Shown piece by piece: positions 7,712 through 36,800 of a DNA stretch of 64,000 nt (position 1 is its first letter; each line of letters begins with the position of its first letter). The translations under genes were made by a program, and so were the position numbers. The DNA comes from Pecten maximus. Its lineage: Eukaryota. Under the pieces are notes generated by a model. It had not been told where the DNA came from and made no database searches. It saw only the letters and a program-made list of their open reading frames with translations. The stretch lies in assembly GCF_902652985.1 (NCBI RefSeq), contig NC_047026.1:11284001-11348000 (forward strand), written 5' to 3'.

Positions 7712-9384
7712 GTTTTAAAATGTGTCAAGTAAGAAACATTTTTACATGGTTTTGAAACAATAAAACACGTTCCCTTCCTAAAAGAATGTCAGTATATCAG
7801 AATCCTCAGTGAGTTCACACTGTAAACACAAATGCAGTCGAAATCTTTATCCCGCCGTATACGTTTGGAGGAATATTTCAAACGGTATTCAAACACATAT
7901 TTGTTTTACATACGTAATTTAGTCCGCTCTTGTCCTTGTTAAATGTCACAATATAATTATATCTATATACCAATCTATTATAACAATAAATGATAAATAA
8001 TTTCTCTCTAAGTATCCAATACTGGTATTTAGTTTAGGTCACTGGAATAACGGGTAAGTATAAGGAGGTACAAGAGAGGATAGATTATGTGTTTATGAAA
8101 TAAAAAGACAAATCATAATTGTAAAATATTTAATAAGATTATCATGACGCGACTTTCGTTCCCCATACAGTGCCTCTTGCTTAATCTCCTTTTACACAGG
8201 ACAAGTAAAATTGGGTTAGACCTTGTACAAACAAAAAATAGTCGCTGTGAAATAATCCGGATTAGAGTTGCTTTTATTGTTATATTTAAATACATGTCAT
8301 GCCCTTTGATCAATTCGTATGTTGAAAAACTAGTTTAATCTAGATTATATCTGTTATTGTAGGCGAATAGCTCTTCCATATAAAATACTTTCTTATTATA
8401 TTTTACACAACAATGGGGTATACAATATTAGTGTAATGGCAATGTTGATAATTATCAAGGATACTACCAGGTCAGAAATCCTATTAATTATTACTATTTA
8501 ATTATTTCTTTTTCAGTTCTGTACCAGCTGCTGATTGGTCAGCATCGGGTCACATGTTATTCTATTCAATATCGAGTTGCAATCTGTGACAGTGATAAAA
8601 CATCGTATTGCACGCTCATACTTATGTTCTGTGACGTCACACAATTTCAGCCAATAATTTTGTTGCATACATTCCCGCCAATTTGCGCGACATGCCATTC
8701 AATCTGCCTCAAAACACCGGTTTACTCCTTCCTCTCATCCCCCTACCTCACTGCTGGACCAACTAATAACTATTGTATTATTACTAATGGCCGCCAATGC
8801 AAGTCGACTGTTGCCAAATTATGTTATGCAGTAGGTGAAACACTTTGCTGACATCTTCACAAGCATGGCTACACAGGCCAATGCAAGCTAAGAAAGAATT
8901 GACGATATTTTTATAATGGGAATACAACCAGCATTCTAAATTTGAAAATGGAATAAGGATCATGATAATAATTATGTATTCGTCATTAATATCACATTGT
9001 ATGAGACCAATTCCTCATTTTTCTGAAAGTAACGGGAAATGCTGAAAATATGTCTGGGACAACAAATACATAAAATGTACAATTACATGTATATATATAT
9101 TAAAAGTATGTTTTATCTACTCTTTATTTCCAGACATTCCTTTCCACTTTGTAATATAACACTGCCAATTCGGAGGGATGACGTGCTTGGAAACATAGCC
9201 GTGATTTAGAAGTCCCGCGCTGAACGTCTCACCCAAGTAATTATTTTACTGCATGTTTTAACTAGTGACAGCACATTTAAAGACAAATTATATGAAATGA
9301 TATCAAATCAAAGTTTAAAGTTTCGCTACTCAAAAAAAATGGTGGCATTGGAAGGATTTATCTAAGAAATAATTAACGATGATT

Positions 9385-12146: not shown

Positions 12147-14881
12147 ATGAACATTTTACGTAAGTATTGCTACTTTTGCTTTTCCTTAAACCGTCTTGTA
12201 CCATTGATCCTTCGTACAAAGATGATCAACTTCCCTGTTCAACCGCTCATAAAAATAATAGTTAATACATCCAGTTTTAATTGTTGTATCAAATCATTGC
12301 ATAATGCATTAAAGGATAACGCAAAAAAAAAAAAAAAAAAAAACATTCGGACATTATTTTGTTTTTATTTTGTTTTTATTTTGTTTTTTTTGTTTTGTTT
12401 CTTGTTTTTCTTCTCTTTTTTTTTTACATTTACCTTTGCAATTCTTCAAAGTTCTTTAATGTTTGGATATTTTATTCATCTATTCATCTATTTCTCGGAT
12501 AACTTGAATTTTAGATCTGTTTACTGCCGTCGCCACCGTAGCTGTTTGTGCGGCATGCACAATACAGACAAATTCAGCACACAACACAAGGACCTACACC
12601 ATCGATACATCCGGGTCCTGTAATGACGAAGATTATAGTTCCCTTCCTATTTGTTCCATCGAAACATTGAATCGGAAAATGAGAGTTGCCCAGCGAGTAA
12701 TGCGACACGCAATCAATGACATTGTAAGTTTCAAAAAGCAATATGTTTCCAAATCAAACTTATAGAGCTTAATGTCTGCTGTTTGATAAACATGAACTAT
12801 CAGGAATATAATCACCTCTTAACATACTTGTATATATTGAGATGTTTATATCTTTTTGTATATATTATATAATGTTATGTTTATTTATGTATATGATTTT
12901 ATGAGGATCACTTGGATAACAATAGTTGTTTGTTTTAGTTTAACGGCCCATCGACGGCTGTGGTAATTTCGGGCCATGGAGATTAATTAACTTTCTTGTC
13001 ATAAACAAATGGGTAACGAAGACAAAATCAGATAGTAAGGTTTATTTTTAAAAGCATTTGTAGTGTATATTTAGATTATATAACGTCAAGGATGGGGGGA
13101 GGGGGTCGACTTGGTTAACAAACTAATGAACAGCGACGAATATTTAGAAAGAAATTGATTCAAAACCTTTGATTTATTAGGTAACAACAATACGCTCCGG
13201 TTCACTTAACTGCCATGACTACCAGAACCTGCCCCTGGTATCCAATACTGGATCTGACATGGTAAGAGCTAATTATTTACAATGCAATGTAACATTATAG
13301 GAATAGCTTATATCCACTGATACCTCTGAAATGTGCACCTCTACATCAGCAATATATCAATGTAATATAAGCTATAGAATACCTACCACAACAACAGATC
13401 TACATAGGAATTGTACTAAAAGACTGTATGGACAAAATAGCACTTATTTATCTATCACTATTATAATTATATATATATATATTATGATATAAATTATATA
13501 TAATCATGTATCAGATATATTTACAATATGACCACTTCTTAACATATTGACTATTGACTTGTCAACATGAAGTCTACAGTACCAATATATCATTGACGTG
13601 TCTACAGTACCAATGTATCATTGACGTGTCTACAGTACCAATACATCACTGACGTGTCTACAGTACCAATATATCACTGACGTGTCTACAGTACCAATAT
13701 ATCATTGACGTGTCTACAGTACCAATATATCATTGACGTGTCTACAGTACCAATATATCATTGACGTGTCTACAGTACCAATGTATCATTGACGTGTCTA
13801 CAGTACCAATATATCATTGACGTGTCTACAGTACCAATATATCATTGACGTGTCTACAGTACCAATGTATCATTGACGTGTCTACAGTACCAATATATCA
13901 CTGACGTGTCTACAGTACCAATGTATCATTGACGTGTCTACAGTACCAATATATCACTGACGTGTCTACAGTACCAATATATCATTGACGTGTCTACAGT
14001 ACCAATATATCATTGACGTGTCTACAGTACCAATGTATCATTGACGTGTCTACAGTACCAATATATCATTGACGTGTCTACATAACGTCTACAGTACCAA
14101 TGTATCGGTGACGTGTCTACATTACGTCTACAATACCAATATATCATTGACATGTCTACATGATATCTACCTGATCGAACTGACAAAACAATGTTATCGT
14201 TATGTGTATAATGAACTTTATACTCCTTTTTATCTTAGAGACATATATATATAAAACATCAATACCGTGTCTATACAAGTTTGTAGTCTATATAAGACAT
14301 AAGGCATTGATCAAAATACGCTGTAACATGTATATGAATGTGAGTATTCCTGATTGGTAAAAACCTGCCCCACAGGTATTGACGAAATCTAGAAGTGATG
14401 TAAAAGTAGAAAAAGGGGGAATCTATCTGATATTTGTGAAACTGCTATGGCACACAATGTGGTATAACTGTTAACCAAACTGTGTCCGTCTGTGTGTTTT
14501 TTGTGTCCCCTTAAGACATAAGATATTATTTTGTAGCCGTTGATTAGAGTTTATTGTTGCCCGTCTCTTCAGGTCTCTACCCTCCAGACAGGGATACAAA
14601 TGATGACACAAGTTGCTTTAAACATTTCGGTCACAAACTGCCACACACGTGGACGATGCTCTCACAATGTCCTTCAGCCGATTATTGATGTTATATGCGA
14701 GATGAAACGCACGCTCATGTACGTCGAGGTTGACCCCAATATTTTCAGTGCGACGATGACTTGTAACACAATGGACAGAACAGAACTCACGGTATTCACG
14801 TGTGCTAGTCTCGGAAATGCTGTCGAAGTTCTTCGTTTCTTGGAAAATGATATCAGCAGAATTTTCAGACATACGTCGTAA
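12147..14881 (+). CDS. Secreted four-helix cytokine-like protein, paralog A (203 aa; LIF/OSM/IL-6-like candidate)
   Basis: Exons 12147-12159, 12515-12723, 13181-13261, 14573-14881 (intron phases 1,0,0; all GT-AG; no internal stops). Protein MNILHLFTAVATVAVCAACTIQTNSAHNTRTYTIDTSGSCNDEDYSSLPICSIETLNRKMRVAQRVMRHAINDIVTTIRSGSLNCHDYQNLPLVSNTGSDMVSTLQTGIQMMTQVALNISVTNCHTRGRCSHNVLQPIIDVICEMKRTLMYVEVDPNIFSATMTCNTMDRTELTVFTCASLGNAVEVLRFLENDISRIFRHTS. Exon-by-exon homology to paralogs B and C supports the gene model; the cytokine identity is inferred. Confidence 0.85.
13572..14160. repeat. 28-bp minisatellite, ~18 copies plus degenerate tail, in intron 3 of paralog A
   Basis: Unit CTACAGTACCAATATATCATTGACGTGT at 28-bp period (13574, 13602 and onward). 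Confidence 0.97.
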
Positions 14882-15789
14882 TTTGGTTTAAGACAGTTTA
14901 ATTGTTAATTTATATAGTATATTTCTGATCAAAATGTGACATTGTAATCTTCAATTGAGATTAAAGTATAAAGAAGTATGATTATTTTTTTGTATTATTA
15001 TGACTCCGTTCAAATACCTTAAAACATAACCTTAATGATACAATGCTTAGAAATGAATTAATTTCTCCGTAACAAACAGTCAGAAAAAACCGGCACGCAG
15101 ACGAAATCTTAATTTCAACCCAAAAACGATAACACGAGCGCAAAGTATGAACAAGCTATATATTTGAATGGATATAGTTGATAGAATAGGGGAGAATAAA
15201 ACCAGTTGCTCCGAAAGTGAAAGCGTCCTGCTGGCTCATACAAATATGGGTGAATCCAGATTAAGCCACATCATCAATATCGTAACCAGTGGGAGACATC
15301 GCAGACACTATTCATGCGAACGATCATCGGACTTCATATCGAACAAAGAGATGAAATATTTCCAAATGCGATCAAATGATTGAATACAAATCTTTCCTGT
15401 GGTTTTTATCAGCCTTTATCTATTGAAACCCTGTGTTGTTCGATTTTAAGTCAGCAGGTTACATTAGTCTAGGTAATAGTGATATAGGGAACACGTCATT
15501 GAGTGTCGAGTCTACTGGAACATTGAAACAGTGTAGTTAGGAGGGGGGGGAGTGTTCAATGGAATATGATACCCTTTTAAAATGATACCCCCTTAAAGTA
15601 AACACGTCATCAATATATCTATAGGTGAAATAGAAAGACTTCGCATGGTCTTTGCTACATGTTATGATAAACATTTCAATATCATTAGCCTCAAAATCAA
15701 GAATCAAGAATCAAGTCAGCCAAGAGCGGGTATTTGTGTATACAAAAGACATGTCTTGGAGTATTAACTGTAAAATGTATGTGTATCGA

Positions 15790-16000
15790 TTTTACATGGA
15801 TTGTACAAACGACATCCTTTTGTGTGGATTGTACAAAAGACAATCTTTGTGTTGATTGTACAAACTTACCATTTTTTGCAGATTCTAGAAAACCGTCCCT
15901 TTGTGTGGATTGTACAAAAATGACCTTGGTATTGTATAAGAAAAAAGCTTTGTTTGTATTGTACAAAAGGCACCCTTTGTGTGGATTGTGCGTACAAGAT
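15790..16000. repeat. Degenerate short tandem repeat (TTTGTGTGGATTGTACAAAA)
   Basis: About 6 imperfect copies between the convergent 3' ends of paralogs A and B. Confidence 0.7.
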
Positions 16001-17147
16001 ATTTACATTTTAGTATTAATTTATTTATGATTAAAACTTATGAAAGTGTTAACAATAACAACAAATAAGTAAGTATTGAACATTAAAAAAAACTTTAATG
16101 CCTTCACTTTACATATGAATAAACATATTTACAGTAAATGACTAAAATCCATAATATCTAATACTTATCAATAAAGTAGATGACAATAAATTAAAAAGAA
16201 ATACAGTGTATAAAGGAAATATTCAGCTCGCATGACTAAATACCGTCATACTTGTAAAATATATGACATTTAAAGGCAAACGTAAATTTTCAATGAAAAA
16301 CTAAACAAAAAAACGATTGCATGGAAAACAGTGATTTGACCACATATTCTGCAATTTACACCCAGCAACACAGCGCCATTTTCAATGGGTTGTTCATCTG
16401 CTTTCAAAAGTGTTTTAAAAACCACAAAACATTCAATAAAAGTACATAAAAATGACGTATTCTTAAGTTGATTCATTACATATATACAGGCGAGCATCAT
16501 TTTGACGAATATATAACATCCTCCCGAATGGCCAATCATCAGCACAACATTCTCTCCTTTAAATATATACGACAACGTGACAACAAATGGTCTATAAATA
16601 CACATAAAGGGTTACTCTATATTTCTTAAATCACAAACTCATGCCAGGCCATGGATTTTTGATTTATACACACCTTCGCTATTTTTTGCTTCATACTGAT
16701 TGCAAAATCATAATCGATTTCTACTTTAAATGATTTCGCTTGTAGATCAATGGCTCGCTCTTCTTTAATATAATATTTTATCAAGTTGTTGTTCACTATC
16801 ACGGCAGTACAAGGATACCCAGAAAGCACAACACGTTTTTTCAGTGATATAGATATAATGATCGTTGGTCTTGACGTTGATAAACCTTGAATCGACGTCC
16901 ACTAACTTTGAAAATATGACGTTGAACCAATGTTAATTTACATTATCTTCATCATCCCACTGTCTTTGTTGAATTTCAGTGTTGAACATAGTTTGCACAT
17001 CGTCGACATTCTATATTAAGCTTACCCATGATAAAACGGTTATTGGTGGCGTGCAAATTGTTCATAAATATAAGTGATGAGTAGGTAAAAGGTTTTTGTT
17101 GATATGACATATTTCTTAAAATTGTACAGTTCAGTTTATGATATCAG

Positions 17148-20100
17148 TTATTGCCGTCTGTGAGAACATGTATCAGTCGTCATGGGCATAGCTAGGTACA
17201 TTCTCACTGTCAAAGTTAAGGGCGGATTTGAAGTTGTGGATAAGGATGTTAGCTTTCGGAGATTTCGGCATGTAAACACCGTCAGGTCAGTCCTATCCAT
17301 AGTATCCATATCCAGTTGAACTTGAACTTCAGACTGTACAAGATCACTGCAAAGTCTTTTCATTTCGCAAATAATTGCCCGCATTGCTGGGAACAAGTTT
17401 GTGTTTAAGTTACTGTGTTGGTGGCAACTTGATATCGTGAGTTTTAATGCTATGTCTAACAACAGAGGCATACCATGCCGGAGGGTACTAGCCTGTGTGT
17501 AAACAAAGAAAAGAAAATTATTTAATGTTACTTTAATAACAAAAAAAAGTGGGATATGTTGGTTTAAGTAATGAGGCATAAAGATATAGCTAACCTTAAA
17601 CCCCAGTGTTGTTGACTTAATGCGTTCAGCATAATGGAAAATGCGAAAGTATTTTTGAAACTCAAGGAAATTCTCATATTTTAACTTACTCAGGTAATGA
17701 GTTTGTTTTTTATTGTAAGTGGTTTAAAAAAGAACTATGATAATTATCGATGTGTTACAAAACTATACAGATTGTTCTTTCTTGTTAAGCAACATTATTA
17801 TCTACATACAAAATAACTATCTAGAGTTTCAAGGTTGGATAAAACGTGTAAAGAATTATCAAAACCATCAAAACCAATTGAATTTGCAAAATAGTTTGGT
17901 AAACCCAATTATACCTTTACATTTTGAAATAATTTTTAAGAAGAAAAAATAATCACAAGCTACCTATATTATCCTTATAAGTATCAGTGCATCAAGATCT
18001 CCACAAACAAAATGGTGACTACAATTGATTACAACCAGGGAACTTATGCTATTCTTTCTATGGTAACGAGAAATACAAAATCGCAATTGTTGCAATTTAG
18101 AATTAATCAATTATATTTTAACAACTTATTCCTATTGATATGAAATTAGACTTGTAAATAACACATATCTTTGTATCAAAGAAAGGGAGATAACTACTCA
18201 CATTTTACGGGAATTTAAGGAATAACAGAACTAAACAATTCTGAAAACCTGCTAGATGATCTCACTACAGATTTCTCAGTACGTAAAGATGCAATGACCT
18301 TTGAGTTTTTTTTTCAACCAAACTTTGTACATTAAACAGTATATTACAAAGCCATGTGTTTACATATGTTACTTAATATGATGGTATTTAGTTAATTCCA
18401 TTCAAGATTTCCAGAGAAATTTATACCCTTATTAACATAAAACTTACTTTGTACGCCGCAATCGACCCTGGTTTTTTTTTAGGTTTTTTGCAAAGTGTTC
18501 TTAAAATATTATTTATTCATACGATTTCTTCGATTCCTTCAGTTAAGCCATACGTACTATTCTAAAATTCTAAAACGAAGACGTTTTTGCTGTACTTACC
18601 ATACTATGTCCACTAGATACAGTAATGTCCATTGGGTGTACATTGCAAAGACTTCTCCTCATCATCACCGTGCTGTCCTGAAAATAAATATTTATTTAAC
18701 AGTTCAAGTAAATACATAGAGAAGTCACCTGTCTAATCAATATATGTTATAATTTAAAATAACCCATACAGAATTTCTTAACCTTTTATTCACCAACTTG
18801 ACAATTTAAGAAAAAAAAAGATTTCCCATGTGGTCTATCCATATTTCGTAATTTTGTTAGAATGTGGAACTCTGAAAAAACTTGATGCATTTTATATCTA
18901 CACATGTCAACGCCCATATTTCTAAGTTTTCCTTTTGGTCAGATGGACCAAATCTTAATTAACTGTACTTACTTGTTCGTCGATCGCCTCTCTAATATGA
19001 TACCTGGCTAAGTCCAAAAGTTCTTTCAGATGGTCTAAATCACAAATACTAATTTCCTCGTGTGTGTTGTATAACCCATCGTTCTCACACAAACCCATTG
19101 TGGTTAAGTTAAATGTTTGGCGATCATTTCCCGTCCTTTGGAGGTATACTGGTGCAGAGGGACAATGTGCTCCAGACATTGTAATACACAGGACAAATAC
19201 TATCAAGCCTGCAATGATATCAACCAAAAAATAAAACATTAAATAATCTATCGATTAGATAAAACATTTATGTTTTTATATCAGTTTTTACTAATATTTG
19301 AAATCAGTAGGCTGACAACTTAGGAGATATAATAGATGGAATGAAGTGAAGAGCAATATCATCAAGCACTGCTAAAGCATATGTTCAACATGATACTGGT
19401 GAAATTATTGGAGTGGTTTAACGACCTCTGTAACATTGAATAAGAGTTAGGGCATTGCAGTTTGCAAAAGTGTTCTGACGTTATGCTGCCGTTAAGGCAA
19501 AGAAAACAACTACAAAAGCTACAATGAGTTTACAATGATATATCTCGACATTTGGTAAAAAAGCTGTTGTGTTCTCAACAAACACTGGCGGTCAAACAGT
19601 AGATATGATTAATTGTAAAATAGTTTAATTGTATTTACAGACCTTGGTTCACAAGTGAGTTGGAGTTTCCGATAGTCAGCTTTAAAACCCCTCACTGTTT
19701 TCGTTATATATAAATTATGACAATTTATTACAAAAATATGTTGAATAATAGAATATTTTTGCTAATGATTAAATAACTCTCTAATGCCGTGCTCAACTCT
19801 TTATATGTAAATGAGCCGCGGAATATATATCATACACGCATTCCCCAACTGGTTAAAACAGCCCAAAGTCGATCAGACGTACTGGTTGCTGTCACAAGGG
19901 TAAAGAAAAGGAGTGTTAGGCAAAATTACGACATCGTCTTTGACTTGAAGAGTCAACTAAATTTTGTTTGATAACAATAAAAAAAAAACAGAGAGGCGTT
20001 AATCCTACAGAAACTATGAGTAATTCTAAAGACATGAATGAAAAGGACCAAAATCTAGACGGGGAGGGATTTTAAGGGTAATTATCAGTTATGACTATGT

Positions 20101-21889
20101 AAGATATCAGTGTTTTATGCAAGAATGGATGTTTATACATATTACACTATCAGTTTTGCTCAAACTAGTGGTTAAAATGCCAATTTTGGACTGTTTGGCC
20201 AACATATCTCCATAACTAGATTATTCATGGATAAACCAAGTATGTCAAGACCTTGTTTATGTGAAGTTTTAAAGGTGTAGAATTTTTAGGCATAATTCCG
20301 TTACGGGCAACGATAACAGAGTTATCGCCCCTACACTTCCTTCCATATTATTCATAATGTTCTGGCATAAAAATAGTCTTTTTAGATATCTGTTCAGGGT
20401 AAACATACCAATAAATAGAAGTCCTTTACTATGAATATACACAACAAAGTACAACTTATAATTACATGTATACGAAGTTGACGCAATAACAAAAATATCA
20501 AGATATGAATAATAGTTATCCATGTTTATATTTCTCAAGCGTCACATTTAGGTTATCTTTCGTCCTTACTTTCGTGCCTATTTGATTTTGAGTCTGATCG
20601 GGAAAACAAAATGGCCTACAGACAGGGATCTTGAATTTTGATAAGTGAAATTTGTTAATACTATTTCGTGAAAAGTACCATAAGGATATTTTTTAAATTG
20701 TCCATGCGTATGTTTTCCTTTGTCCCTAAATCAGTTATGAGTCTGATGAAAACGAAATGGCAGTCGTGTTTGATTTTGACAGTTGAAATTTGTTATTGAT
20801 ATATTTCAGGAAGATCTTAGATCTTGCTCGTCCTTCATATGCAGGTTTTCCCTTATCAAATGATTAAGAGGAAGAGGGGAAAGAAGGGGAAAATAGAGAA
20901 AATAAGATAAGTTTTTCATAGGACCGATAAAGATCGACTAGTGGGTGCTGGAATATCTTGTATTAAAAACCAGATTGAAGCCTGTTTCATACACTGGAAA
21001 TCAGGAAATACCAATCCTGAATATCTTGTTTTGGTTTTACCATTCTACAATAAAAAGGTGACGCATTTATCCTTGTATCGATCCCAGTCGAGGAGTATAA
21101 TCATTTAAACTTATAGTTAGTTTTAGCGTTTTTAAAGATTACAATTAGCTTCATGTTTATTAATGTTAACAAATATACTTGTCAATCATGTCAAAATAAC
21201 AGAACATAGCATACAATCAAACAATGAATCAGTCAATTATCAAAAATCAAATAAATATGGTTTCAATTGTATTGTAAATAAGGTAGTTATGCTTTGGAAT
21301 TCAGTATCAATAAACAGACGATGATAATTGAATCTGATTTACCGCTTAAACTTAACCAATACTTTCTAAACGGTATATCAAAATCTATACTAGAAGCATA
21401 TATCTTTATATCAACAATTACCAGTGATAATAGAAATACGACTTTACTTAAGTTAAGGAGGATATAAAGTTGACAAGACTCTAAGTAACTGGTGTTCACG
21501 AAAAAACAAAAGAATGACATTAAAGAGACAAACTTACACAATAGTTTCGGGGTCACTGAATTCAGAACCTCTAACATCGAGCTATATATTATTTCCTTAT
21601 TATATATATAGGCTGTACACTATTTAATATAATATACTCAATGGTATCACAATTACGCTAGTATTTTTTTACAGAAAATATTCTATGGTTTTAACTTATC
21701 CTCTTTGATAAGGTATGGTTTTTTTTTTAATTAAGTGACAGTTGTTAATGACATCAATATACCGTGTACATCCTAATCAATATGTATATCAGTATAAAAA
21801 TAACAAAACATTCATGAACACTTACTCGTTAAAAACTTAAAACAACTTGTTTGCCTTTTCGCTAACGATTGAGTCACCATCATTTTCAT
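17148..21889 (-). CDS. Secreted four-helix cytokine-like protein, paralog B (240 aa as assembled; 232 aa if a 1-bp frameshift at 17254-17256 is corrected)
   Basis: Exons 21889-21826, 19208-18973, 18677-18600, 17492-17148 (phases 1,0,0). Protein MKMMVTQSLAKRQTSCFKFLTSLIVFVLCITMSGAHCPSAPVYLQRTGNDRQTFNLTTMGLCENDGLYNTHEEISICDLDHLKELLDLARYHIREAIDEQDSTVMMRRSLCNVHPMDITVSSGHSMASTLRHGMPLLLDIALKLTISSCHQHSNLNTNLFPAMRAIICEMKRLCSDLVQSEVQVQLDMDTMDRTDLTVFTCRNLRK...; shares ICEMK and MDRT..TVFTC with A and C. Exon 1 is the least certain part. Confidence 0.8.
17700..18300 (+). mobile_element. Decayed L1/Tx1-type LINE 3' ORF2 fragment (zf-RVT region) in intron 3 of paralog B
   Basis: Broken translation WFKK...IDVLQN...NNYLEFQGWIKRVKNY and TRNTKSQLLQFRINQ..ILTT..YEIRLVNNTYLCIKEREITTHILREF resembles the Tx1 C-terminal KL..FQ.KI.HRIL.TN..L.KI......C..C....ET..H.FW.C pattern (family pattern recalled). 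Confidence 0.6.
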
Positions 21890-24800
21890 TATCACAGTAA
21901 CAGATCTTGTCCCCGTGTACTTCTAACTGTGACGTGTTTCAATCCAGGCAGATATAAGTTGATGTAACTTGTTTCGCAATTATTGTAAAATGAATAAGAA
22001 TTCCAATTCCAGCCATATTTATAGGAAATATAACCCGTGATTTTAAGTGTAAATTAACCTTAGTTTCCCGGATATCCTAGGTAGTTCAGAAATCCCTAAA
22101 AGTCATTGGTCATTTAGCTGGCAAAAAATACATGACGTAAATCATAATCTGACATATTTGAAATTATCAGAATCGACCGTTATGGTTCAGTTGACAACAC
22201 GTGGAAGAATTACAATAATAATTTCCGGTTATGCGCAAATTAAGCATTTTGTTATGGTAAACCCCGATACTCACATGTGCATATACATATTCACAACTAC
22301 AATAACATTTCTTGTTCCTGGAATTGATGTGATGCGCTCCAGTCTTACCACAATGCAATGCGATCGCAAAAAGTATTAAAGCAAGGTTTATCAGCATATA
22401 AAATTAATTCACAATTGAATCACTTATATTAGTATTAATATTTATCGGATGACTTTTCACCTTAAATTTAATAGTTTATGATACTAATAGAGAAGAAAGT
22501 TAGCATATTAGTGAATTGATATATCTATATGTTAATTGGTCTATATATAGGTAACATATATTTTCTGAGATTCACAATGGTAAAATCGTTACATCATTGT
22601 TGTTACGGAAAAACAAACCCATTTATGTTTCCTTAATGTTTCAGTGACGTGTTCTTCCCGTAGATACACGTGTAATCCTCCAAGATATTAGTAAACATAT
22701 GAATGCCTTATCTTATGATCATACGTGTTCCGTTTGGTTCCTTCTTGTTCCGCTAAACGGAAACAGAATTTTTCTTGAATTTGTTAATATATTCCTTCCT
22801 ATCAGGAAAACTGGCCTTACAATCAGTCTCCTCTTTCTCTTGACATTCCTATTGTTTATTTGTCCTACAGTATTCGTTGTCGTCAGCACATTTAAAAAAG
22901 AACGATGATGGTCGGACATAAACAGACTAATGGCACTTTGAGCGATCTACTACCTTAAAGGGTTTTGGACACATAGGGTATTTTTCCATTTTCTGTTAGC
23001 CTGACCCCATAAATGTTGGCTGACACAGGTTTTACCTCGCCTTACAAAGCTGTTTATCTATTTTAGGCCAGTAGGGGGATATTGCTGATGGCTGAAAAAT
23101 TTTAATGAGCTAGGTGGTCACGTGGTCCGACGCGTCATCTGGTTCACCTCACCAGCATCACTAGGCTAGAATCTGCCTTGTTATATGCATTTATAGAGGG
23201 AAACTTCAAAGAGCCCCATATTATTTTGTAAACATTGAAAGCAATGACAGTGAATGTCCTGATTTTATAATCTTACATGTTTAGATATTCTTTCCACACC
23301 TCATGTCTGTAATTGTATAATCAAAATAGTAGACAAGCGAACAATATCATAACCTTGGTAATTAACTAATATCACATCTTTTTTTTTATTTCTTTTTTAT
23401 TTTAAAAACTCAAACAATGGCATATACACTATAGGTCTACTCAGAGATATAAATATCACATATGTGATATATACATCTCTTGTCTACTATACAGTGAGGT
23501 GACAAAATGATATCACTGCAGTCTTTTTACGGTGATTAATTTTCCTAGCCTTGTTAACCATTTTATTTTTTGGCATAATTTGATAAGATTTTGTACACTT
23601 TTAAGAACATGTTTTACTCTTTCCTGACGTAATATTAACATAAAAATATCCATTTCTTAATGTTGCAAGATAAAGATTTGATAAAAATGCAGTAGTTTGA
23701 AATACAGTTGTCTCATCCTGATGCAATTTAATTAGATATTACGTAATCACAGAACTGATTTTTTTTTTATCTGAGACGATACATGGGTTTTTTGTACATT
23801 GAACTTTGAGGATTTCCTTTGTATATATTAAATCAAGAATTTTTAAATATTGGTTGGAATTAAAGCGTCCAGATATTTTTTTACTCAAATCATGTTATGA
23901 TGAAATGTTGGAAACTAAAGATACTCGGATTCTTTATTTAAATCAGTAACTTTGAACTGTCAGTCTTGGGTAAATGTTTGAAGAAATCAGTTACTGTTCT
24001 AATCAATTTTACAGTAATGTATTCAAACAACGTCCTTTTTTGACAATTTCCTTAAAGAATGTTTTATGAAGGTTATGAAGGAAATGTATTTGATGTGGTG
24101 AAAATGTTACGCAGACATTCGTATTGATTTGACTAAAACAGATCATTTTAAATACTATAGTATGTTTAAACGTTTTCAGTTACTCAAAGCAGAAAAGATA
24201 AAAGAACTTAACGATTTAGGAAAATATTTATCACTAGCAAATAAAAGATTTTAATTAGAATATATTCACTTTTAATGATTATTTTTCTGTTTCCCTGTAA
24301 CAAATCTGACAAATTAGCTTATTGAATTAAAAATCATGTAAGAGTGGATGCCTTTGTCCATTAATGTTATATAATATTTTATCCAATAAGTTGTAAAACT
24401 TATGGAATAAAGTTGAATTTAATACAGTTGTTTAATGAATAACGGCATCATCACTGGAGTACATGTAACCAATTCACTGTTGTAACCCAATATATTAATG
24501 TAAAGTATTCCCACATCACAAAACCTTTGGTAGATAGTGTGTAAATAGTGATTTTAACGTTAGTTGACCGACCTCGTTATCAGAATGAAATTTTGCATAT
24601 AGGTCAGTTGTCCAGATGGGCCCATGCTGTGCCCTGTATCTCAGCGTGTATATACAAAACCCCAGGAGTGCGAGGGTAAATTGACTGGCTTTTCAGAAAA
24701 CCAACCTATAGACAACTTTAACCTTTTTGTGTCTAAAACCCTTTAAAGCTGTTTTGCATTATCCCACATTTATATGAAGAGTGACTGTCGGGTTTATAAT

Positions 24801-26405
24801 GAGGCAATACATTGATGTTTTTTTCGTTAAACGTCTCCGTCGAGATTTAGTTAACCATGAAGGCATATTTTTTATATCCTTGCTGTATCGACTGACTCTC
24901 ACAGCTGAACAATCACATTCATGAAGGCATTGAATTGTGATTGCATTTATGGTAGTATTAACTTAATTGTATGCAGGTTTATTCCATGTATTGCTTAAGC
25001 GTAATTCGAAAGTAGAATCAATCAGAATTGTGAAGGTAATGAGTGTTCTATTAATCAAATAGACGTAAGTGAATAGTAATATTTATGTATTTCATTAATG
25101 AGCATTATAGATAATTTCTATATGCATTGTTTGAAGCGAATAAAAAGACAAATGGTGATTACATCTGTTAGTTTAATGATAACACTCAAAACAATACTTC
25201 TAAAAATAGCACACGTAACATAACTACGAAAAACAAACATAGAACGTAGATGAATATATAATATCTCATTTATTACAAAATAATACACATATGAACATTT
25301 TAACATTTTATGAAAACTTATGATTCTAATTATATTTTGAAACAACTGTAAAATAAATGATACAATGTAAAGTTTCACGTTAATTAAGGACGAACATAAC
25401 GACGAATAAAAACCCGTATTATAAATAGACAACAATAACAAACACTGGCTTACATCTGTACACGTATATTGAATCATTAAATGCCAAAGAAATTCTAAAC
25501 ACAAAAACAATCATCACATACAAGAATTAAAAAGAACGCTAATGAACAGAATGAATAGGTACTTGTGAAAGCTGAAACCATCTAAGGAATGAAGGGAAAA
25601 CAATTGACACAAAATAAATCTTTGATTACTATCAGTATTATATCGAATCTGGTGATCTACATCACCAAGTGTTTTGTGTGAAGTCAAATCAGTTGTTTTG
25701 AATCCAGAAGGTACAAGTCTGCTGAAAATGTTTCTTTATAAATAATACTTTAAAATGTAAAACAAGAAAATATCTAAAATATCTTTTTATATTAACAAAC
25801 TATTCTGACAAAGAGGCCATTCACACGATCCCACTAAACCAGCCATATATACACACAATATGATGTTGATACTGTTACATACTCGTCTGTAGCAATATAT
25901 GTTTATTTCATAAACACTGCCATCAAAAAGACCTGTAAAACAGCCACACAATATATCGTTTTCATCGCTTCAGTGAACCTCAATCGCTTAAGCGATAACA
26001 GTAGGTAGGTGCTTTGTTATAAATGTCTGTTTGAAGTTCATGAGATGTCTTATTGTTTCCTAAACAAGAACAATATTTGATGAACAATGTTGTATTGTAT
26101 GAAAAGGTATCCATTTATAAAAATGTGCAGATTCTACTTAAATCTAGGATGTTCTTTCTGTAAAATAATACAACCAATGTCAAACTAGGTTAGGACTTAT
26201 ATTCCCATACAGTTAATTCAATATGAATTACATGAAGATGTGGGTCATCTCCGACGTACTGAAAAAGACCGATCAACGAAGGTTTAAATAATGCACCTCC
26301 TTAACTTGAACGTGTTTATTATATATACAGATGCGGAGTGATCAATACCCTGCTTTCAAGAGTGTTCTATAATAATAGACGTGCGGCTATGTTCAGTTTG
26401 AAAAA

Positions 26406-29400
26406 CTAGCCTTCAAAGTTTTCGAAATCCGTAACAATGTCATGTTTAAGATGATTTATTGCAGAAATTGCTCTCCTTAGATTTCGACAGGTGAACAGAA
26501 TGGTGTCTGATCTGTCCATCTCCTCCAAGGAAATGCTGGCTCGGAACTTGCTAGGCTCAATCGGTCTGGCAAATCGCATCAGTTTTTTCATCTCACATAT
26601 GACAGCACGTATTGGCTGGTGGACGTTGAACTGCGTCTCCCCTGAGAATATAGTGTGGCGACGGTGACAATTTATGATGGTCATGTTCAATGCTACCTCG
26701 GACATCAGTTCAATTCCGTTAATAAGTGTGTCCGTCTGTAACAAAAATACATAATATTAACTTCAAGAATATAAGATATATATAGACTATATTATATTAT
26801 AAACAAGCATGCTGGGTATTGCGATAGTAATATATGTCCCCTACCGGCCCCGCTAAAAAAGTAACAGTGACATTGGCCTTGATCCAAAAGTCCTGAAACT
26901 TGATCTGTATCTACTCGTACTGAATTTACATACCGGGTTTCACCAACATATCTTGAAGCATGGCTGAGAAGAGTGCAGAAAACTGAGTGGACGGACTGAC
27001 AGACAGACAGACGAAGAGGAAACCTATAGTCCCCGCGGTTTCACCGGTAGGGGACTGATAAAGATCCTTTAAGACCATTTCCTTTTGTGCACTATTAATC
27101 TATTAAGATGAAAGGCTTTTCTATTTTTTAACTCGGATTAATTAACTAAATCAAAATTATACCGACATAATGACCAAGCCATAATTCAAACTCAAAAAAT
27201 ATTAAACGAGTGCAAAATATAAACAAAGATATAGATTTGCATGAAGACACCTGAAAATGAACAAAGGAAATAAGACCAGGGGATCCGGGAGAGTGAGCGT
27301 CTTCTCATTCAAGGCTTCACTAACACATATCTAGGTTAAATGGGTTAGGTAATATCGATTTGTAATGATTTTGTTTTTATTCCAGATAGTTTCATTTAAA
27401 TAAGATTATTCAACTGTTCAAATATTAACATATTAAACTAGCGTGATAGCTTGGTGACCCTATAGCATATTAATACACCAAACATTTAAAATAATGTAGT
27501 AGCAAACAAAAAATATCGGCAATTAGCGCCATGAAACTTACCATGCTAGTTCCACTTTGGAAGTCTGTATGATCGTAAGGTCTTCTTTCACAAAGCTCTC
27601 CTTGGTACGATGTTACGCTATCCTAAAAAGGTTAATGATTTACATTAAGATTCGGTTCCCTCTCATTAATCGTAAATAGTACGACTGTCCTGCTCACAAA
27701 ACTATTTACCTATTGTTCAATATCACAACCATCGCTGATCAAATACTGCGAACGAAGGCAGAATACTAAGAATAAATGCAGTGTAGCGAAATAATTTACT
27801 TTCAAAGAAGATAATGAGTGTATCTATCAATGGTTGGATTATCTACAGCGAAAGAAAATGGCTAGATTATCGTTCTACTAAATGACAAGTTAAAAATTGC
27901 TCAAGTACTTCACAGGGTGGTTCGTGGTTGCTGTTTATTTTGTTGCTTCAAAAGATTTGACTTTTTTTTCGTGTAAAACATCAAATATGAACTCACCAGT
28001 TCACTTGCTGTTGCACGGAGGACATTCTCGGCTTCAGACATCAATTCGTTAATGGACTCGACATAACACACGGGTACTGAGGATATCCCGGGAGATTGGG
28101 AACACGACAGTGACGTGTCGGCGGTGAACACGTCAAACCCCTGCTGGTGTAGGTGTTGATGGGTAAATTCAAGTCCGTGGGGACAACTGCAGGTCACTAT
28201 TCCAATCGAAAGCACGAGTAGGATTGAAACTACTGTGGTGTTAACTGGAAAAAAAAAGTACAGGTTCAGGAAAAACCCAAAGCATCTGATTTGGGAGAGC
28301 CGACCAAGTGTCTAATACATCGAAATTAAAAAGGTAAAAGCAATCTTCATGATAATCTATATATTCTATAAAATGTTTATAATGATAATTTGATAAGTTC
28401 TGCTTCTCACGCAATATACATGTTTATACATCTCAATAAATTAAGAGTTGATATCTATAAAAAAGTGGTTATAATAGTATTTGCTGGATTTGTTCTTGAG
28501 TTTCTTTGATCCTATTGGGTGATCTATAGGAACTTTAAATTTACAGTAATGCAAAGGTGTTTACCATTTATCTCTAGACGGAGGGTTGGAATATGATAGA
28601 GGACAGATACATGACCTAGAATTTGTCTAGTAGAAATAACGTTTTGATAAAAAAATCAGATTTCAAAACTGAACATAAAAAGCAATCGAATATGTTTTTG
28701 AAGGAGACGTATATCCGTCTTATTGTGATATAAAAACGAGGATCGCTTGAAGATACTAGAATGAAGGTTTACCAAACCAGCAATGATGTGAATGTATTTC
28801 TCTGTTTCTCGGTACTGATAGCTATATATATCTCAATATGAAAAACCCTAACGCTCTTCTGCGGAAATAGTCATCGAGAAGTTGTACGAAGCTTAATCAA
28901 CTTAACTTACTTACCTTAACAGACTTTGCTAACGTTTCAAACTAAATCTTCAGTTCTACCTGATGGTTTTTATTTCTAAGACATCTAAGCCTTCGTTTAG
29001 TCTCGATAATAAAATATTTTGTTGGTTCTGTTTGTAAATTGATTTCCTATTGAGCTATGGAGGTATCATTTACCCTAAGCAAGATTTTTCGGAGCCTTAT
29101 TTCTAATATAATTTTCAAATCATATAGTTACTTTAGTGCAATTTCAAGCCAAAATTGCTTTTTATGACACCTGGACACTATCATCGCTATTTTTTTTTAA
29201 TCTAATGTAATTTCTATCCCATTTTTGTTTGTTTCTTTTTAGGATTGGTTAAAGGTAACCATGCTTTTAAACACTAAAACCTGATTTGGCATGGTACTCC
29301 GTGTGTCACCAACAATACAATTGAGCAGTTCAGCGTGAAAAGAAACAATGGCATTGAAATAGATATAAAATACTTTATCAACAATAGCTTTAGATATACA

Positions 29401-29819: not shown

Positions 29820-32800
29820 AAATTTCTGATTTTTTCATTTGCTGTACAATATTTGGACGCAGCGTGGTACTCATCAGCCCACTCCCCCTATATCCAGCCG
29901 GAACTAACATCCCTAAGACATTTACGTTTTGCGGGATTGTCTACCATGAGCGTAATTCTTTAAATATAGAATTGGTGTTTTTCGTGTGAATAGGTTAAAG
30001 TTTCTCAAGTTCAATTAAGGAAAAAAATGATTTGATAAGCATTGTCAACAAATTGGTATTTTAAAAATGAGGCATTTGAAACTTTTCATTAAAACAAAGA
30101 AAAAATTCCCAAAGGATTTTCTTTGTGTACGCTGTTGTAAACGGTGCTATCATGATTTACGAGCTGCGTGGAACAAAGGCGCGTACCGGAAAATGGACCA
30201 GTTAAAACGTATAGTCTGGCAATTAAAGTACAGCGTTCTGATGTTTTGTTTTAATCGTCAGACAATATAAAACAATTGATTGCTGGTATTGGCATTGTCG
30301 TTGGTTAATATATAAGCTATTGATTGATTTACATATAAAATGATTTAAATAAAAATATCGGTTTTGATTTGGCCATTTTCAACTCCAATATCCTTCAATA
30401 TGTTCTATATACCGGGTTCGTTCTATTTTGTCGCTTCAATACGGAAGTAAAATAGATATGGTTGCGATACGTATTAACTGTATTTAGCAAAGCTTTGACT
30501 GTGATAAAAAAAACACTGCGTCTTCGGAAGAAGTAATATTTAAAAGTGCACATGTACTAACACGGTTATTATATTCCAAACGTACACATACACCCAGAAT
30601 GAACCAAAGGACATTTTATCAATATAATTCTCTTTTCTTTTAACCAATTCAATATTTAACATAACGATGATTATTTCAAAGAATATTGAACTATAGGCAA
30701 AGCTTACAACTGACAAACCAGTGGTTGTCTTCCTGAATTAGTATTTATTTAAAATGAGTGGTTATAATCGAAAACCTGATAGATGTATGTCCCCGACACA
30801 TATGTATCTGGTATCTAAAGAACATTACCTAATACATATTATGAATAACCTTTAAGTTGGTATTATGAATCTAGTTCCAGGTATGGGATAATTTATAAAT
30901 ATATATGTAGTTCAGGACGGAGAATACCAGAAAAGATGTAGTCCAGGACATCATCTATTCTAGTCTATTTACAACAAGATATCGACAAAAATAATATAAT
31001 GTCAAGCTTGACTGTAAGATAAGAAATTCTTCAGTACACCATAAAATGTGATATAGATTTTATGATGAATTGTGGGATTTCATAAGTCCATTATAAATAT
31101 ATCGTAAACTCAACTCGGTTTATGAGGAACAATTCTTTGACAGTATGTTATATAACTATTAAAATGTTCATAGTTCATAGTGCTTGGTATAGTCCAACCA
31201 CAAGTACATTTAGTGACGTCACGAGATAAGTCAATAGTGTAATATGCAGTGTATTCGGGTCGTGTGGATTTGTTGTGACCGGACAGCTGAATGGATTTGG
31301 ATTCCTCGCATGTGATAATGTCATAAGCAATCCTAAACAAGGAACAGAGAGACTAGGAAGAGAAACGGAATCGTCCTGTATGAATAATTACCGTAAATGA
31401 CAACGAGACATGTCATTGGGGTTTGAATTATCGGAGGTAAATGTAATGTAATTCTTTCTTGACATTTCATCACTCAACAACCAAACACTACAGCATCGCT
31501 TAATCATTATATTCGAACAGCATATGACCTTCACATACTGAGCCTATAAACATACTTAACAATCCTTTTTTAAAACATAAAAAAGCCCAATACCCTTTTT
31601 CTTAAAACTTATACTGGAGCCAAATATGGCGTTATTTCACTCATCAACAACCAAACGCTACATCAGCGATTGTCTTTAAAGATTGAAAAGCATAGGCCCC
31701 TCAAATAATGAGCTTATACGCATACTAAACAGTCCTTTTAAAAATGGTCCAATAACTTATTCGTAAAACTATATAACGGTAAATAAAATGATACTTACAT
31801 TTGATATTCATTTGTGAAGTAAGTGGTGGAATGACTCTAACAGTAAAAATTATAAAGGCTTTATCAGACCGAGTTCACAATACTTATGTATCGATGAAGG
31901 ATATACTTTGACATAAAATTAACTGTTTATATACGTTTTTATTTGGATCCCCCATTAATATATTTTGAAATTATAGATATCAATATAGATTTCATGGGAA
32001 AATAATAAGTCCTTATTAATAATGTAAAACACGTTTCCGTTGCAAATATCATTTCCCTGCATTGGTTTCATATAAATAATAGTTCAAGTTAAGTTAGACA
32101 GGTTCATGTGATCAAAATCTGAAATGTTTCTCATCTATTTCAGGGATTGAGCCAGACAGCACAAGCCCCTTTCTCGGAAAACTTCCGTTCACCAAATTAA
32201 TACCGGACAAGAAACAATGTGCAACATTTGAACCAAAGCCAGCCAAATGTTTCACACTCTACCGGAAGTTTTGTACCGTCTGGCATCACAGGGTGATTAA
32301 ATTACACGAGTTCGTACCCGTCGTCGTGTTCACACAGAACGTACAGGCACACTGAACATATTTCTTGACAAACGTCCAATAGATGTTTATTTTACAACCA
32401 CAAGGTCAGTGTATTTGGTAGGTATGTGATCTACACTGGTACGTTTTATTCAGGAAGTAGAGATTGTGTTATTGTCAACTGGAATGTTAAAAACGGCAGC
32501 AGATGAGTACTTTATGAGAATCTGAAACGCGAAACCAAACTTTCAAAACCACTTATCATGCACCTGTTTTAATATCATTATGGAGATAATTAATCTTTCT
32601 TTAAATGAAATATAAAACAGGCGAGAAATATTGTTTTCATAAATAATTTTTTGAATCGGAAATATGACGAATATGTTGCTATTGCGAATTCTTATCAAAT
32701 CACTAAAAAAGATAAAGTCGAGATTTGCTTGTTCGGATTTTTATATCCGACAACTGTAACAAATCCTAATGAATAGAAAATTTACCACAAGAATATAAAA

Positions 32801-33814: not shown

Positions 33815-36800
33815 ATGTTAACTTACATAATGTATCTAAGACAGACCCCAGATTATCTCCTATACGAGGTAATGTTAACATACCTAAGACGTACCCCAGA
33901 TTATCTCCTATACGAGGTAATGTTAACATACCTAGGACATACCCCAGATTATCTCCTATACGAGGTAATGTAAGACAGACCCCAGATTATCTCCTATACG
34001 AGGTAATGTTAACATACCTAAGACGTACCCCAGATTATCTCCTATACAAGGTAATGTTAACATACCTAAGACAGACCCCAGATTACCTCCTATACGAGGT
34101 AATGTTAACACACCTAAGACAGACCCCAGATTATCTCCTATACGAGGTAATGTTAACATACCTAAGACGGACCCAGATTATCTCCTATACGAGGTAATGT
34201 TAACATACCTAAGACGTACCCCAGATTATCTCCTATACGAGGTAATGTTAACATACCTAGGACAGACCTCAGATTATCTCCTATACGAGATAATGTTAAC
34301 ATACCCAAGACGTACCCCAGATTATCTCCTATACAAGGTAATGTTAACATACCTAAGACAGACCCCAGATTATCTCCTATACAAGGTAATGTTAACATAC
34401 CTAAGACAGACCCCAGGTTATCTCCTATACAAGGTAATGTTAACATACCTAAGACAGACCCCAGATTATCTCCTATACAAGGTAATGGTAACATACCTAA
34501 GACAGACCCCAGATTATCTCCTATACGAGGTAATGTTAACATACCTAAGACGTACCCCAGATTATCTCCTATACAAGGTAATGTTAACATACCTAAGACG
34601 TACCCCAGATTATCTCCTATACGAGGTAATGTTAACATACATAAGACGTACCTAAGATTATCTCCTATACAAAGTAATCTTAACATATCTAAGACAGACC
34701 CCAGATTATCTCCTATACGAGGTAATGTTAACATACCTAAGACAGACCCCAGATTATCTCCTATACAAGGTAATGTTAACATACTTAAGACAGACCCAGA
34801 TTATCTCCTATACGAGGTAATGTTAACATACCTAAGACAGACCCAGATTATCTCCTATACGAGGTAATGTTAACATACCTAAGACAGACCCAGATTATCT
34901 CCTATACGAGGTAATGTTAACATACCTAAGAAGGACCCAGATTATCTCCTATACGAGGTAATGTTAACATACCTAAGAAGGACCCAGATTATCTCCTATA
35001 CGAGGTAATGTTAACATACCTAAGACGTACCCCAGATTATCTCCTATACGAGGTAATGTTAACATACATAAGACGTACCTCAGATTATCTCCTATACAAA
35101 GTAATGTTAACATACCTAAGACGTACCCCAGATTATCTCCTATACGAGGTAATGTTAACATACCTAAGACAGACCCAGATTATCTCCTATACGAGGTAAT
35201 GTTAACATACCTAAGACAGACCACAGATTATCTCCTATACGAGGTAATGTTAACATACCTAAGACGTACCCCAGATTATCTCCTATACAAGGTAATGTTA
35301 ACATACCTAAGACAGACCACAGATTATCTCCTATACAAAGTAATGTTAACATACCTAAGACGTACCCCAGATTATCTCCTATACGAGGTAATGTTAACAT
35401 ACCGAAGACAGACCCCAGATTATCTCCTATACGAGGTAATGTTAACATACCTAAGACGTACCCCAGATTATCTCCTATACGAGGTAATGTTAACATACCT
35501 AAGACAGACCACAGATTATCTCCTATACGAGGTAATGTTAACATACCTAAGACAGACCCCAGATTATCTCCTATACGAGGTAATGTTAACATACCTAAGA
35601 CGTACCCCAGATTATCTCCTATACAAGGTAATGTTAACATACCTAGGACAGACCCCAGATTATCTCCTATACGAGGTAATGTTAACATACCTAAGACAGA
35701 CCACAGATTATCTCCTATACGAGGTAATGTTAACATACCTAAGACGTACCCCAGATTATCTCCTATACGAGGTAATGTTAACATACCTAAGACGTACCCC
35801 AGATTATCTCCTATACGAGGTAATGTTAACATACCTAAGACGTACCCCAGATTATCTCCTATACAAGGTAATGTTAACATACCTAGGACAGACCCCAGAT
35901 TATCTCCTATACAAGGTAATGTTAACATACCTAAGATAGACCCCAGATTATCTCCTATACAAGGTAATGTTAACATACCGAAGACAGACCACAGATTATC
36001 TCCTATACGAGGTAATGTTAACATACCTAGGACAGACCCCAGATTATCTCCTATACAAGGTAATGTTAACATACCTAAGACAGACCCCAGGTTATCTCCT
36101 ATACGAGGTAATGTTAACATACCTAGGACAGACCACAGATTATCTCCTATACGAGGTAATGTTAACATACCTAAGACAGACCACAGATTATCTCCTATAC
36201 GAGGTAATGTTAACATACCTAAGACAGACCCCAGATTATCTCCTATACGAGGTAATGTTAACATACCTAAGACAGACCCAGATTATCTCCTATACGAGGT
36301 AATGTTAACATACCTAAGACGTACCCCAGATTATCTCCTATACGAGGTAATGTTAACATACCTAAGACAGACCCCAGGTTATCTCCTATACAAGGTAATG
36401 TTAACATACCTAGGACAGACCCCAGATTATCTCCTATACGAGGTAATGTTAACATACCTAAGACAGACCCCAGATTATCTCCTATACAAGGTAATGTTAA
36501 CATACCTAAGACAGACCCCAGATTATCTCCTATACGAGGTAATGTTAACATACCTAAGACAGACCCCAGATTATCTCCTATACAAGGTAATGTTAACATA
36601 CCTAAGACGGACCCCAGATTATTTCCTATACGAGGTAATGTTAACATACCTAAGACAGACCACAGATTATCTCCTATACAAGGTAATGTTAACATACCTA
36701 AGACAGACCCCAGATTATCTCCTATACGAGGTAATGTTAACATACCTAAGACGTACCCCACATTATCTCCTATACAAGGTAATGTTAACATACCTAAGAC

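Follow-up and report, generated by a model that had tools for sequence, protein, structure and literature searches.

We analysed a 64,000-nucleotide stretch of the scallop Pecten maximus genome (NCBI RefSeq assembly GCF_902652985.1, contig NC_047026.1, positions 11,284,001 to 11,348,000), referred to here as the window, and all positions given below are those of this whole stretch. Three spliced paralogous genes, A, B, and C, lie within positions 12515-28244, with A on the forward strand and B and C on the reverse strand. Their products are 24-32% identical in pairwise comparisons, and the genes share a layout in which an exon encoding the signal peptide and helix A is followed by a middle exon of 26-27 codons and a large final exon. 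All modelled introns are GT-AG and the intron phases are 1, 0, and 0 in each gene, the phase-1 intron falling inside the signal peptide and the phase-0 introns falling after helix A and before helix B. Exon 2 of gene A (12515-12723), supported by the gene model and a profile match, encodes the signal peptide, a predicted beta-hairpin, the first three conserved cysteines (Cys1-3), and helix A. Exon 3 (13181-13261), which lies outside the profile matches, is placed by its AG/GT boundaries in phase 0 and by alignment to the orthologue P0004, and carries the AB loop with Cys4. Exon 4 (14573-14881) encodes helices B, C, and D, with the helix-B cysteine codon at 14639-14641 and extra cysteines in the BC loop and the CD strand. 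A 13-nucleotide candidate first coding exon at 12147-12159 has a phase-1 donor with the joint-best donor score upstream, and would give an N-terminal length equal to that of P0004. The last intron of gene A contains a 28-bp minisatellite of 18 copies (13572-14161).

In gene C, exon 2 (27997-28244) again encodes the signal peptide, the beta-hairpin, Cys1-3, and helix A, exon 3 (27542-27622; gene model, alignment, and profile match) carries the AB loop and Cys4, and exon 4 (26406-26735) encodes helices B, C, and D, with the helix-B cysteine codon at 26669-26667. One low-depth contig from run X9, whose status as RNA is a guess, ends exactly at 28244 and continues for 12 more letters. The 13-nucleotide candidate first coding exon of this gene (31799-31811) has a phase-1 donor with the best score in 5.7 kb upstream and a TATA-like box upstream, and the candidate first exons of A and C are equal in length and encode the same first three residues. 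The last 151 residues of gene C, exon 4 included, match a named Pecten maximus protein record (P0005) letter for letter, and both internal junctions agree. This record begins inside helix A, so the database model of gene C lacks both its signal peptide and Cys1-3. Gene B is represented by exon 2 (18973-19208; gene model and profile match), exon 3 with the AB loop and Cys4 (18600-18677; profile match with E 0.12), and exon 4 with helices B, C, and D (17173-17492), in which the helix-B cysteine codon is at 17426-17424 and the stop of the true frame ends at 17173; its first exon was not located. Interspersed repeats occupy 19750-24750, between B and C, and 26800-27040, in the last intron of gene C, and attract many short, loose-ended contigs of 90-99% identity from runs taken as RNA. 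No fourth copy was found by a protein search of the scallop genome or by a profile run over 3,320 frames from the window and 30 kb of flank, although distant copies are possible.

The assembled sequence of gene B carries a false frameshift in helix D, one base being missing from the assembly at 17253-17256. A one-base insertion at this position is present at full contig depth in all three DNA runs with cover, which come from three studies and one of which is possibly the source sample. Read with a placeholder base, gene B aligns to the C-terminal end with its orthologue P0003, to which it is 57% identical overall. The idea that gene B is a pseudogene was rejected, the frameshift being contradicted by these three DNA runs. 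The ninth cysteine of the assembled protein is likewise an artefact because it is located in the false frameshifted tail, and in its true frame gene B, like P0003, has eight mature cysteines.

By inspection, A, B, C, and the full-length orthologues (201-225 residues) have hydrophobic N-termini that we predict to be signal peptides, and to judge from these sequences the products are likely to be secreted. Homologues are present in scallops, oysters, and mussels: every gene has scallop orthologues, the oyster and mussel proteins are more distantly related, and each named homologue record is labelled uncharacterised or hypothetical. A profile search of 1.84 billion representatives gave 16 matches at E <= 0.001. 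In a tree of 14 full-length sequences, from which partial sequences were excluded, scallops split from oysters (support 100/99), with the caveat that long branches meet at the root. Each window gene groups with its own orthologues in this tree, so that A, B, and C predate the split of the sampled scallop genera. The oyster records P0007/P0034, P0033/P0013, and P0008/P0020 bear consecutive locus numbers on contigs of matching length, suggesting that the oyster genes also form tandem clusters.

Seven of the 198 ungapped columns hold cysteine in A, B, and C alike, compared with about 0.02 expected if the positions were independent, whereas only 13% of the non-cysteine residues of gene C are invariant in all three paralogues. 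The original prediction for this DNA had reported these seven cysteines, and all of the motifs that it quoted are present. Across the 14 full-length proteins five cysteine columns are invariant; the N-terminal cysteine is also found in all 14 but stands six columns later in two A-type proteins because the A-type hairpin is shorter. Conservation of the seventh cysteine, at the end of helix B, extends to all seven scallop proteins and to none of the seven oyster proteins, in which the column is occupied by R, H, Y, or N, and over all rows of the wider alignment it is present in 9 of 21, including mussel-type sequences. Oyster proteins instead have one or two extra cysteines just before Cys2. The A types (window gene A and P0004) have an extra cysteine six residues after the helix-B cysteine, and the position of the spare cysteine varies between lineages and even between these two orthologues. 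If the signal peptide is cleaved just before the x-C-P/T motif, a site that we placed by eye, the mature proteins contain nine cysteines in the A types, eight in the B types, seven in the C types, and seven or eight in oysters. The values predicted earlier for C and A are thus right on the same assumption; gene B, with eight, had been omitted from the argument built on odd counts. Among the 14 homologues, partial sequences again being left aside, the count is odd in eight and even in six.

An AlphaFold2 model of the C orthologue P0001, built from a 25-row alignment, has a mean predicted local distance difference test (pLDDT) score of 83.0 and a predicted template modelling (pTM) score of 0.82. 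Its elements are a hairpin of strands 17-22 and 27-33, a short helix (34-38), helix A (51-76), helix B (100-124), helix C (138-152), a strand in the CD loop (164-170), and helix D (174-206). The model of the B orthologue P0003 (pLDDT 83.6, pTM 0.80) has the same layout. When the models were compared with 48,161 solved chains using VIA-align, the top 11 rows were long-chain class I cytokines in both cases. The best match of P0001 is IL-11 (Z 15.0, root-mean-square deviation (rmsd) 3.0, 156 residues aligned), followed by CNTF (14.2), CLCF1 (14.1), OSM (13.7), IL-6 (13.6), LIF in sixth place (13.0), and IL-27 p28 (12.6). P0003 also matches IL-11 best (Z 13.4, rmsd 3.1, 150 aligned), with IL-6 at 12.2, CLCF1 at 12.1, LIF, fourth, at 11.7, and OSM at 11.5. 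The first non-cytokine rows have Z values of 9.9 for P0001 and 9.4 for P0003. In Foldseek the top 29 rows are chains of the GH/PRL/IL-6 families, with GH, placental lactogen, IL-6, and CNTF first, although none reaches E <= 0.001. Language-model features, which are independent of AlphaFold2 and were computed for one scallop and one oyster protein, place these proteins close to IL6, Hormone_1, LIF_OSM, IL12, and IL11 clusters (scores 0.89-0.94). On this evidence the bivalve proteins are predicted to have a long-chain class I helical cytokine fold resembling that of the IL-6 family. Among unnamed ESM Atlas clusters, those of chiefly cnidarian (56 members), arthropod (56), or molluscan (114, with IL6 in 11%) membership score 0.91-0.94 in the same kind of search, and possibly represent further invertebrate long-chain cytokine families.

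The cytokine alignments start at model residue 41 or later, so that the N-terminal hairpin of about 30 residues lies outside every aligned range and appears to be an addition relative to the solved cytokines. In the models this beta-hairpin likely pairs with the CD-loop strand as a small sheet. Its register places Cys1 opposite Cys2 in both models: in P0001 the strand positions (17-22/27-33) sum to 49, as do the cysteine positions 11 and 38, and in P0003 the strands (27-31/35-41) sum to 66 compared with 65 for positions 20 and 45. The helix-C cysteine lies on the outward face of its helix, toward the segment before helix A, and the helix-D cysteine lies on the flank under the AB loop. Taken with the hairpin register, this arrangement makes it likely that the six conserved cysteines form three intramolecular bonds. 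The positions are compatible in all 14 proteins with the two LIF-type core disulfides proposed earlier, linking the pre-helix-A segment to helix C and the AB loop to helix D, whereas a probable third bond, Cys1-Cys2, and the hairpin module that it would close had been missed. In three mussel or mussel-like sequences (P0015, P0016, and P0011) a cysteine stands where the CD-loop strand begins. The helix-C cysteine is missing from two of these, in which the pre-helix-A bond may therefore be rewired.

LIF and OSM likewise have cysteines ahead of helix A, in the AB loop, in helix C, and close to where helix D begins; the segment preceding helix A aligns with theirs (from P0001 model residue 41-42), and the helix-D cysteine is in about the same register. 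If helix D is aligned without gaps, the modelled cysteine falls within about one residue of its LIF and OSM counterparts. The family differs from LIF and OSM in having only one conserved helix-C cysteine, in a third predicted bond within a hairpin that LIF lacks, and in matching other structures better. LIF and OSM genes are not known to have the intron that precedes helix B in the scallop genes. An identity with LIF/OSM in particular is not supported: IL-11 ranks first for both models, and PF01291 matches none of the 25 alignment members at E <= 5 and none of 4 and none of 6 in other runs at E <= 10. Several of the finer parallels drawn originally hold only in part. An aspartate does stand nine residues before the helix-D cysteine in 13 of 14 proteins, but in the model it sits just ahead of helix D and is likely to cap the helix, not to be a LIF signature. 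A and C carry the helix-B sequon, which window gene B lacks. The FXXK motif is indeed absent from the start of helix D in all 14 homologues. Its proposed replacement, R(T/S)(E/D)x, is confined to scallops and begins one residue ahead of the FXXK register. In a survey of LIF, OSM, m17, and CT-1, FXXK is near-invariant (F 98%, K 96%; PMC9601804). Human OSM has two intra-chain bonds and one free cysteine (PMC6757106), and a free cysteine is a further feature that the bivalve proteins may share with it.

Like IL-11, CNTF, CLCF1, IL-6, and IL-27 p28, the bivalve proteins are predicted to form a long-chain bundle (Z 11-15, rmsd 2.6-4.9, 136-157 residues aligned), and they share with gp130-family cytokines a length of about 200-220 residues and an intron in the signal-peptide region; they differ in being 6-14% identical to them, in giving no Pfam match, in a different set of cysteines, and in the extra hairpin. 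In long-chain class I cytokine genes the signal peptide is canonically interrupted by an intron in phase 1 and the next introns are in phase 0, as they are in the scallop genes. Growth hormone, prolactin, and placental lactogen provide the top Foldseek rows, and this group has a disulfide from the AB loop to helix D and first introns in phases 1, 0, and 0, as the scallop genes do, but the Z values are lower (9.5-12.2) and the scallop proteins are without the C-terminal disulfide loop. IL-6 genes, according to a 2026 study, have a signal-peptide intron, five exons, three introns in the IL6 domain, and a four-cysteine pattern (PMC13081863), compared with four exons, two introns in the mature region, and another cysteine layout in the scallop genes. 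IL-12 p35 and IL-23 p19 resemble the bivalve proteins in predicted fold class and probably in having unpaired cysteines; their inter-chain link uses a cysteine on the AB loop or at site 1 (PMC7600943), whereas the scallop spare cysteine is at the end of helix B. Drosophila Unpaired proteins are described in a 2026 survey as invertebrate secreted ligands of the gp130-like receptor Domeless that act through JAK-STAT (PMC13203501); no sequence or structure match to Unpaired turned up in our searches, in which no direct comparison was made.

The explanation toward which we lean, with moderate confidence, is that the locus encodes a tandem bivalve family with a cytokine fold and three intramolecular disulfides, acting through a gp130/Domeless-type receptor and JAK-STAT, in which the seventh cysteine is a lineage-restricted spare. 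The Cys1-Cys2 bond would close the N-terminal hairpin; a second bond, of a kind found in LIF and OSM, would run from Cys3 at the beginning of helix A to helix C, and a third, again with a LIF and OSM counterpart, from Cys4 in the AB loop to helix D. In the A types the helix-B cysteine could pair with the extra BC-loop cysteine, and in the B and C types it could be a free, partly covered thiol, like the free cysteine of OSM. Helices A, C, and D might then form the receptor-binding surface of the secreted protein, with no LIFR-type site III involved, and binding would trigger JAK-STAT signalling, where receptor, binding, and signalling are all suggested by the fold alone. The fold search, the language-model features, the signal peptide, the length, the cysteine placement, and the intron layout are concordant with a cytokine.

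Several observations weigh against this explanation. In the top VIA-align rows the modelled proteins are only 6-14% identical to vertebrate cytokines, and there is no cytokine match at the sequence level: none of the 25 alignment members matches a cytokine Pfam family, and PDB and Pfam sequence searches returned chance matches only. Any helical bundle might score a Z of up to about 13, and P0003 reaches 13.4 at best. The two models are not independent because both derive from one 25-row alignment, and the folded proteins are orthologues that are 74% (C) and 57% (B) identical to the window products, with no A-type protein among them. A structure search with the Atlas's own lower-confidence model of P0002 (pTM 0.60) gave no cytokine and no named family. 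The disulfide pairings are inferred from register and facing rather than from SG-SG distances. Retention of the helix-B cysteine across paralogues that are 24-32% identical, and in mussel types, is more than a dispensable thiol needs, and the position is probably exposed because the oyster residues there are polar. Nor does the even count of the B types show that this cysteine is paired, because their eighth cysteine takes the place of a buried Leu/Met where helix C ends, at the other pole from the helix-B cysteine.

A different role for the helix-B cysteine would be to bond two chains together at the site-III pole, as covalent homodimers or as heterodimers of paralogues, which would cross-link two receptor chains without FXXK. 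We regard this as rather unlikely. The cysteine is kept in every full-length scallop protein, in three old paralogues, and in mussel types; it has no obvious partner in the C and B types, and its position is probably exposed and close both to the BC loop and to the beginning of helix D, from which FXXK is missing. An odd count (7) also arises in one class of oyster paralogues, by way of a different cysteine, and a free cysteine can retain a cytokine chain in the endoplasmic reticulum until it is paired, as reported for IL-23p19 (PMC7600943). Against this, the cysteine is absent from all seven oyster proteins, the spare cysteine moves between lineages and even between two A-type orthologues, the count is even in six of the 14 homologues, the A types have an intramolecular partner close at hand, and OSM natively bears a free cysteine (PMC6757106). 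The same parity, mobility, and OSM precedent undercut, as a general rule, the original prediction's reading of an odd count as a sign of an inter-chain bond. A homodimer prediction for P0001, made without use of the alignment and without folded controls, scored 0.02 and 0.00 and carries no weight either way. A bolder version, to which we attach somewhat less probability, is that scallop members dimerise covalently through the helix-B cysteine and so activate an orphan molluscan IL6R/Domeless-like receptor without FXXK, forming a bivalve gp130-type branch of their own with a disulfide-stapled sheet. If true, a covalent helix-B dimer would be a signal design not described for long-chain cytokines in vertebrates.

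A rewired set of intramolecular bonds is less probable again. Cys1 would bond the helix-B cysteine in scallops or the extra N-terminal cysteine in oysters, leaving Cys2 spare or paired with the extra helix-C cysteine of the B types in a LIF-like nested pattern. Such wiring would pair all eight cysteines of the B types, and it would fit the near mutual exclusion of the helix-B cysteine and the extra N-terminal cysteine, which occur together only in P0004 (1/14). The hairpin register, however, sets Cys1 across from Cys2 in both models, the extra B-type cysteine is on the buried face of helix C, and helix B would end at the pole of the bundle opposite to that where helix A begins, to judge from its topology. 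We consider it very improbable that the four-helix bundle is convergent or mis-predicted and that the proteins are not receptor ligands: the lack of a sequence-level cytokine match, the Foldseek E-values, all above 0.001, and the fruitless search with the P0002 Atlas model would fit this idea, but the concordance of fold search, features, signal peptide, length, cysteine placement, and introns speaks against it. Least probable of all is the IL-12/IL-23-type arrangement offered as one option in the original prediction, in which each protein would be an alpha chain joined through a disulfide to a soluble receptor chain of the p40/EBI3/CRLF1 kind. In its favour, the structural matches include IL-27 p28, IL-23 p19, IL-12 p35, and CLCF1 (Z 9.5-14.1), IL12 clusters are among the feature matches, and an oyster IL-12 p35 homologue was reportedly published by Xin et al. 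in 2021. Against it, the single AB-loop cysteine is needed for helix D, the spare cysteine lies where helix B ends and not at the AB-loop or site-1 position used for such links, no IL12 or IL23 Pfam match was found, and p35 and p19 rank below IL-11, CNTF, OSM, IL-6, and LIF.

On the reading that we favour, a secreted family with three intramolecular disulfides, the scallop proteins are unannotated candidate ligands for the orphan molluscan gp130/Domeless-type receptor in animals that include farmed scallops, oysters, and mussels. The 2026 survey mentioned above reports IL6R-like receptors, JAK, and STAT in molluscs and no IL-6-family ligand in any invertebrate, and suggests other ligands (PMC13203501); the family is thus a candidate for the JAK-STAT trigger reported missing in molluscs. 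The LIF/OSM survey records no invertebrate matches (PMC9601804). Among the proteins covered in a review of bivalves is an interferon-like one of class II, and the text of that review does not mention IL-6 or IL-12 (PMC9756803). IL-12 receptors are traced to before molluscs (PMC12162339), and the discovery of IL-6 in lampreys came as late as 2026, through a structure-guided screen (PMC13081863). In the literature searched, in which subscription papers were mostly outside scope and supplements were not covered, six of the locus and protein identifiers are unnamed, and no paper joins mollusc, IL-6, helical cytokine, and AlphaFold. The intron layout, together with a cysteine placement of LIF/OSM/GH type, would date the long-chain cytokine fold to before the protostome-deuterostome split. 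Different receptor chemistry, which had been proposed on the strength of the missing FXXK motif, is suggested by this absence together with the predicted hairpin module. The proposal of an inter-chain bond from odd cysteine counts is of lesser importance and weakly supported, and the value of the locus lies in the family.

Searches of this genome for a receptor, partner, or kinase used Pfam profiles exon by exon without a positive control, and so do not show absence. Two STAT loci were found (C2:45973656-45975499 and C2:27098225-27098335). The only IL6Ra-bind match over the cut-off has two internal stops and no WSxWS-type frame (at least 45 residues) in the surrounding 30 kb, lies in a region that by eye holds a carboxylesterase-like exon, and was rejected, as was one weak EpoR_lig-bind match, which also has no such frame in the surrounding 30 kb. 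Lep_receptor_Ig, Jak1_Phl, IL12p40_C, and LIFR_D2 gave no match, and nothing usable emerged for a soluble p40/EBI3/CRLF1-like partner. No splice joint of A, B, or C was seen in five runs taken as RNA (X6, X7, X8, X9, and X18) out of 20 candidate rows, gene A exons 1-3 being outside the compared stretch, and no RNA run was listed as matching gene B exon 4. Cover by these runs is mostly of intronic repeats, together with a few X9 contigs of depth 2 to 3 on exon 2 and the 3' region of gene C. The counts of ATTTA in the three 3' regions are not above those in shuffled sequences (p 0.94, 0.14, and 0.28), and a regulatory scan of the cluster found no kB site. GAS-like palindromes number three compared with about two expected, which is not above chance; two such STAT-type sites are at 32171-32179 and 22315-22323, one of them 360 bases 5' to gene C's candidate first exon.

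Elsewhere in the window, a weak Prominin match on the reverse strand (7418-7714, E 0.0025, under the cut-off) is probably the first exon of a prominin gene beside the cluster. An LSM-domain exon on the forward strand (50328-50438) is presumably LSM1-like, and a homeodomain exon on the reverse strand (60053-60589, E 2e-22) is one that we take to be HMX/NK5-like. A 48-bp minisatellite of 92 copies with a 93% match occupies 33836-38243, and the long open frames there, at about 1900-4400, and at 62400-63100 look like repeat artefacts.

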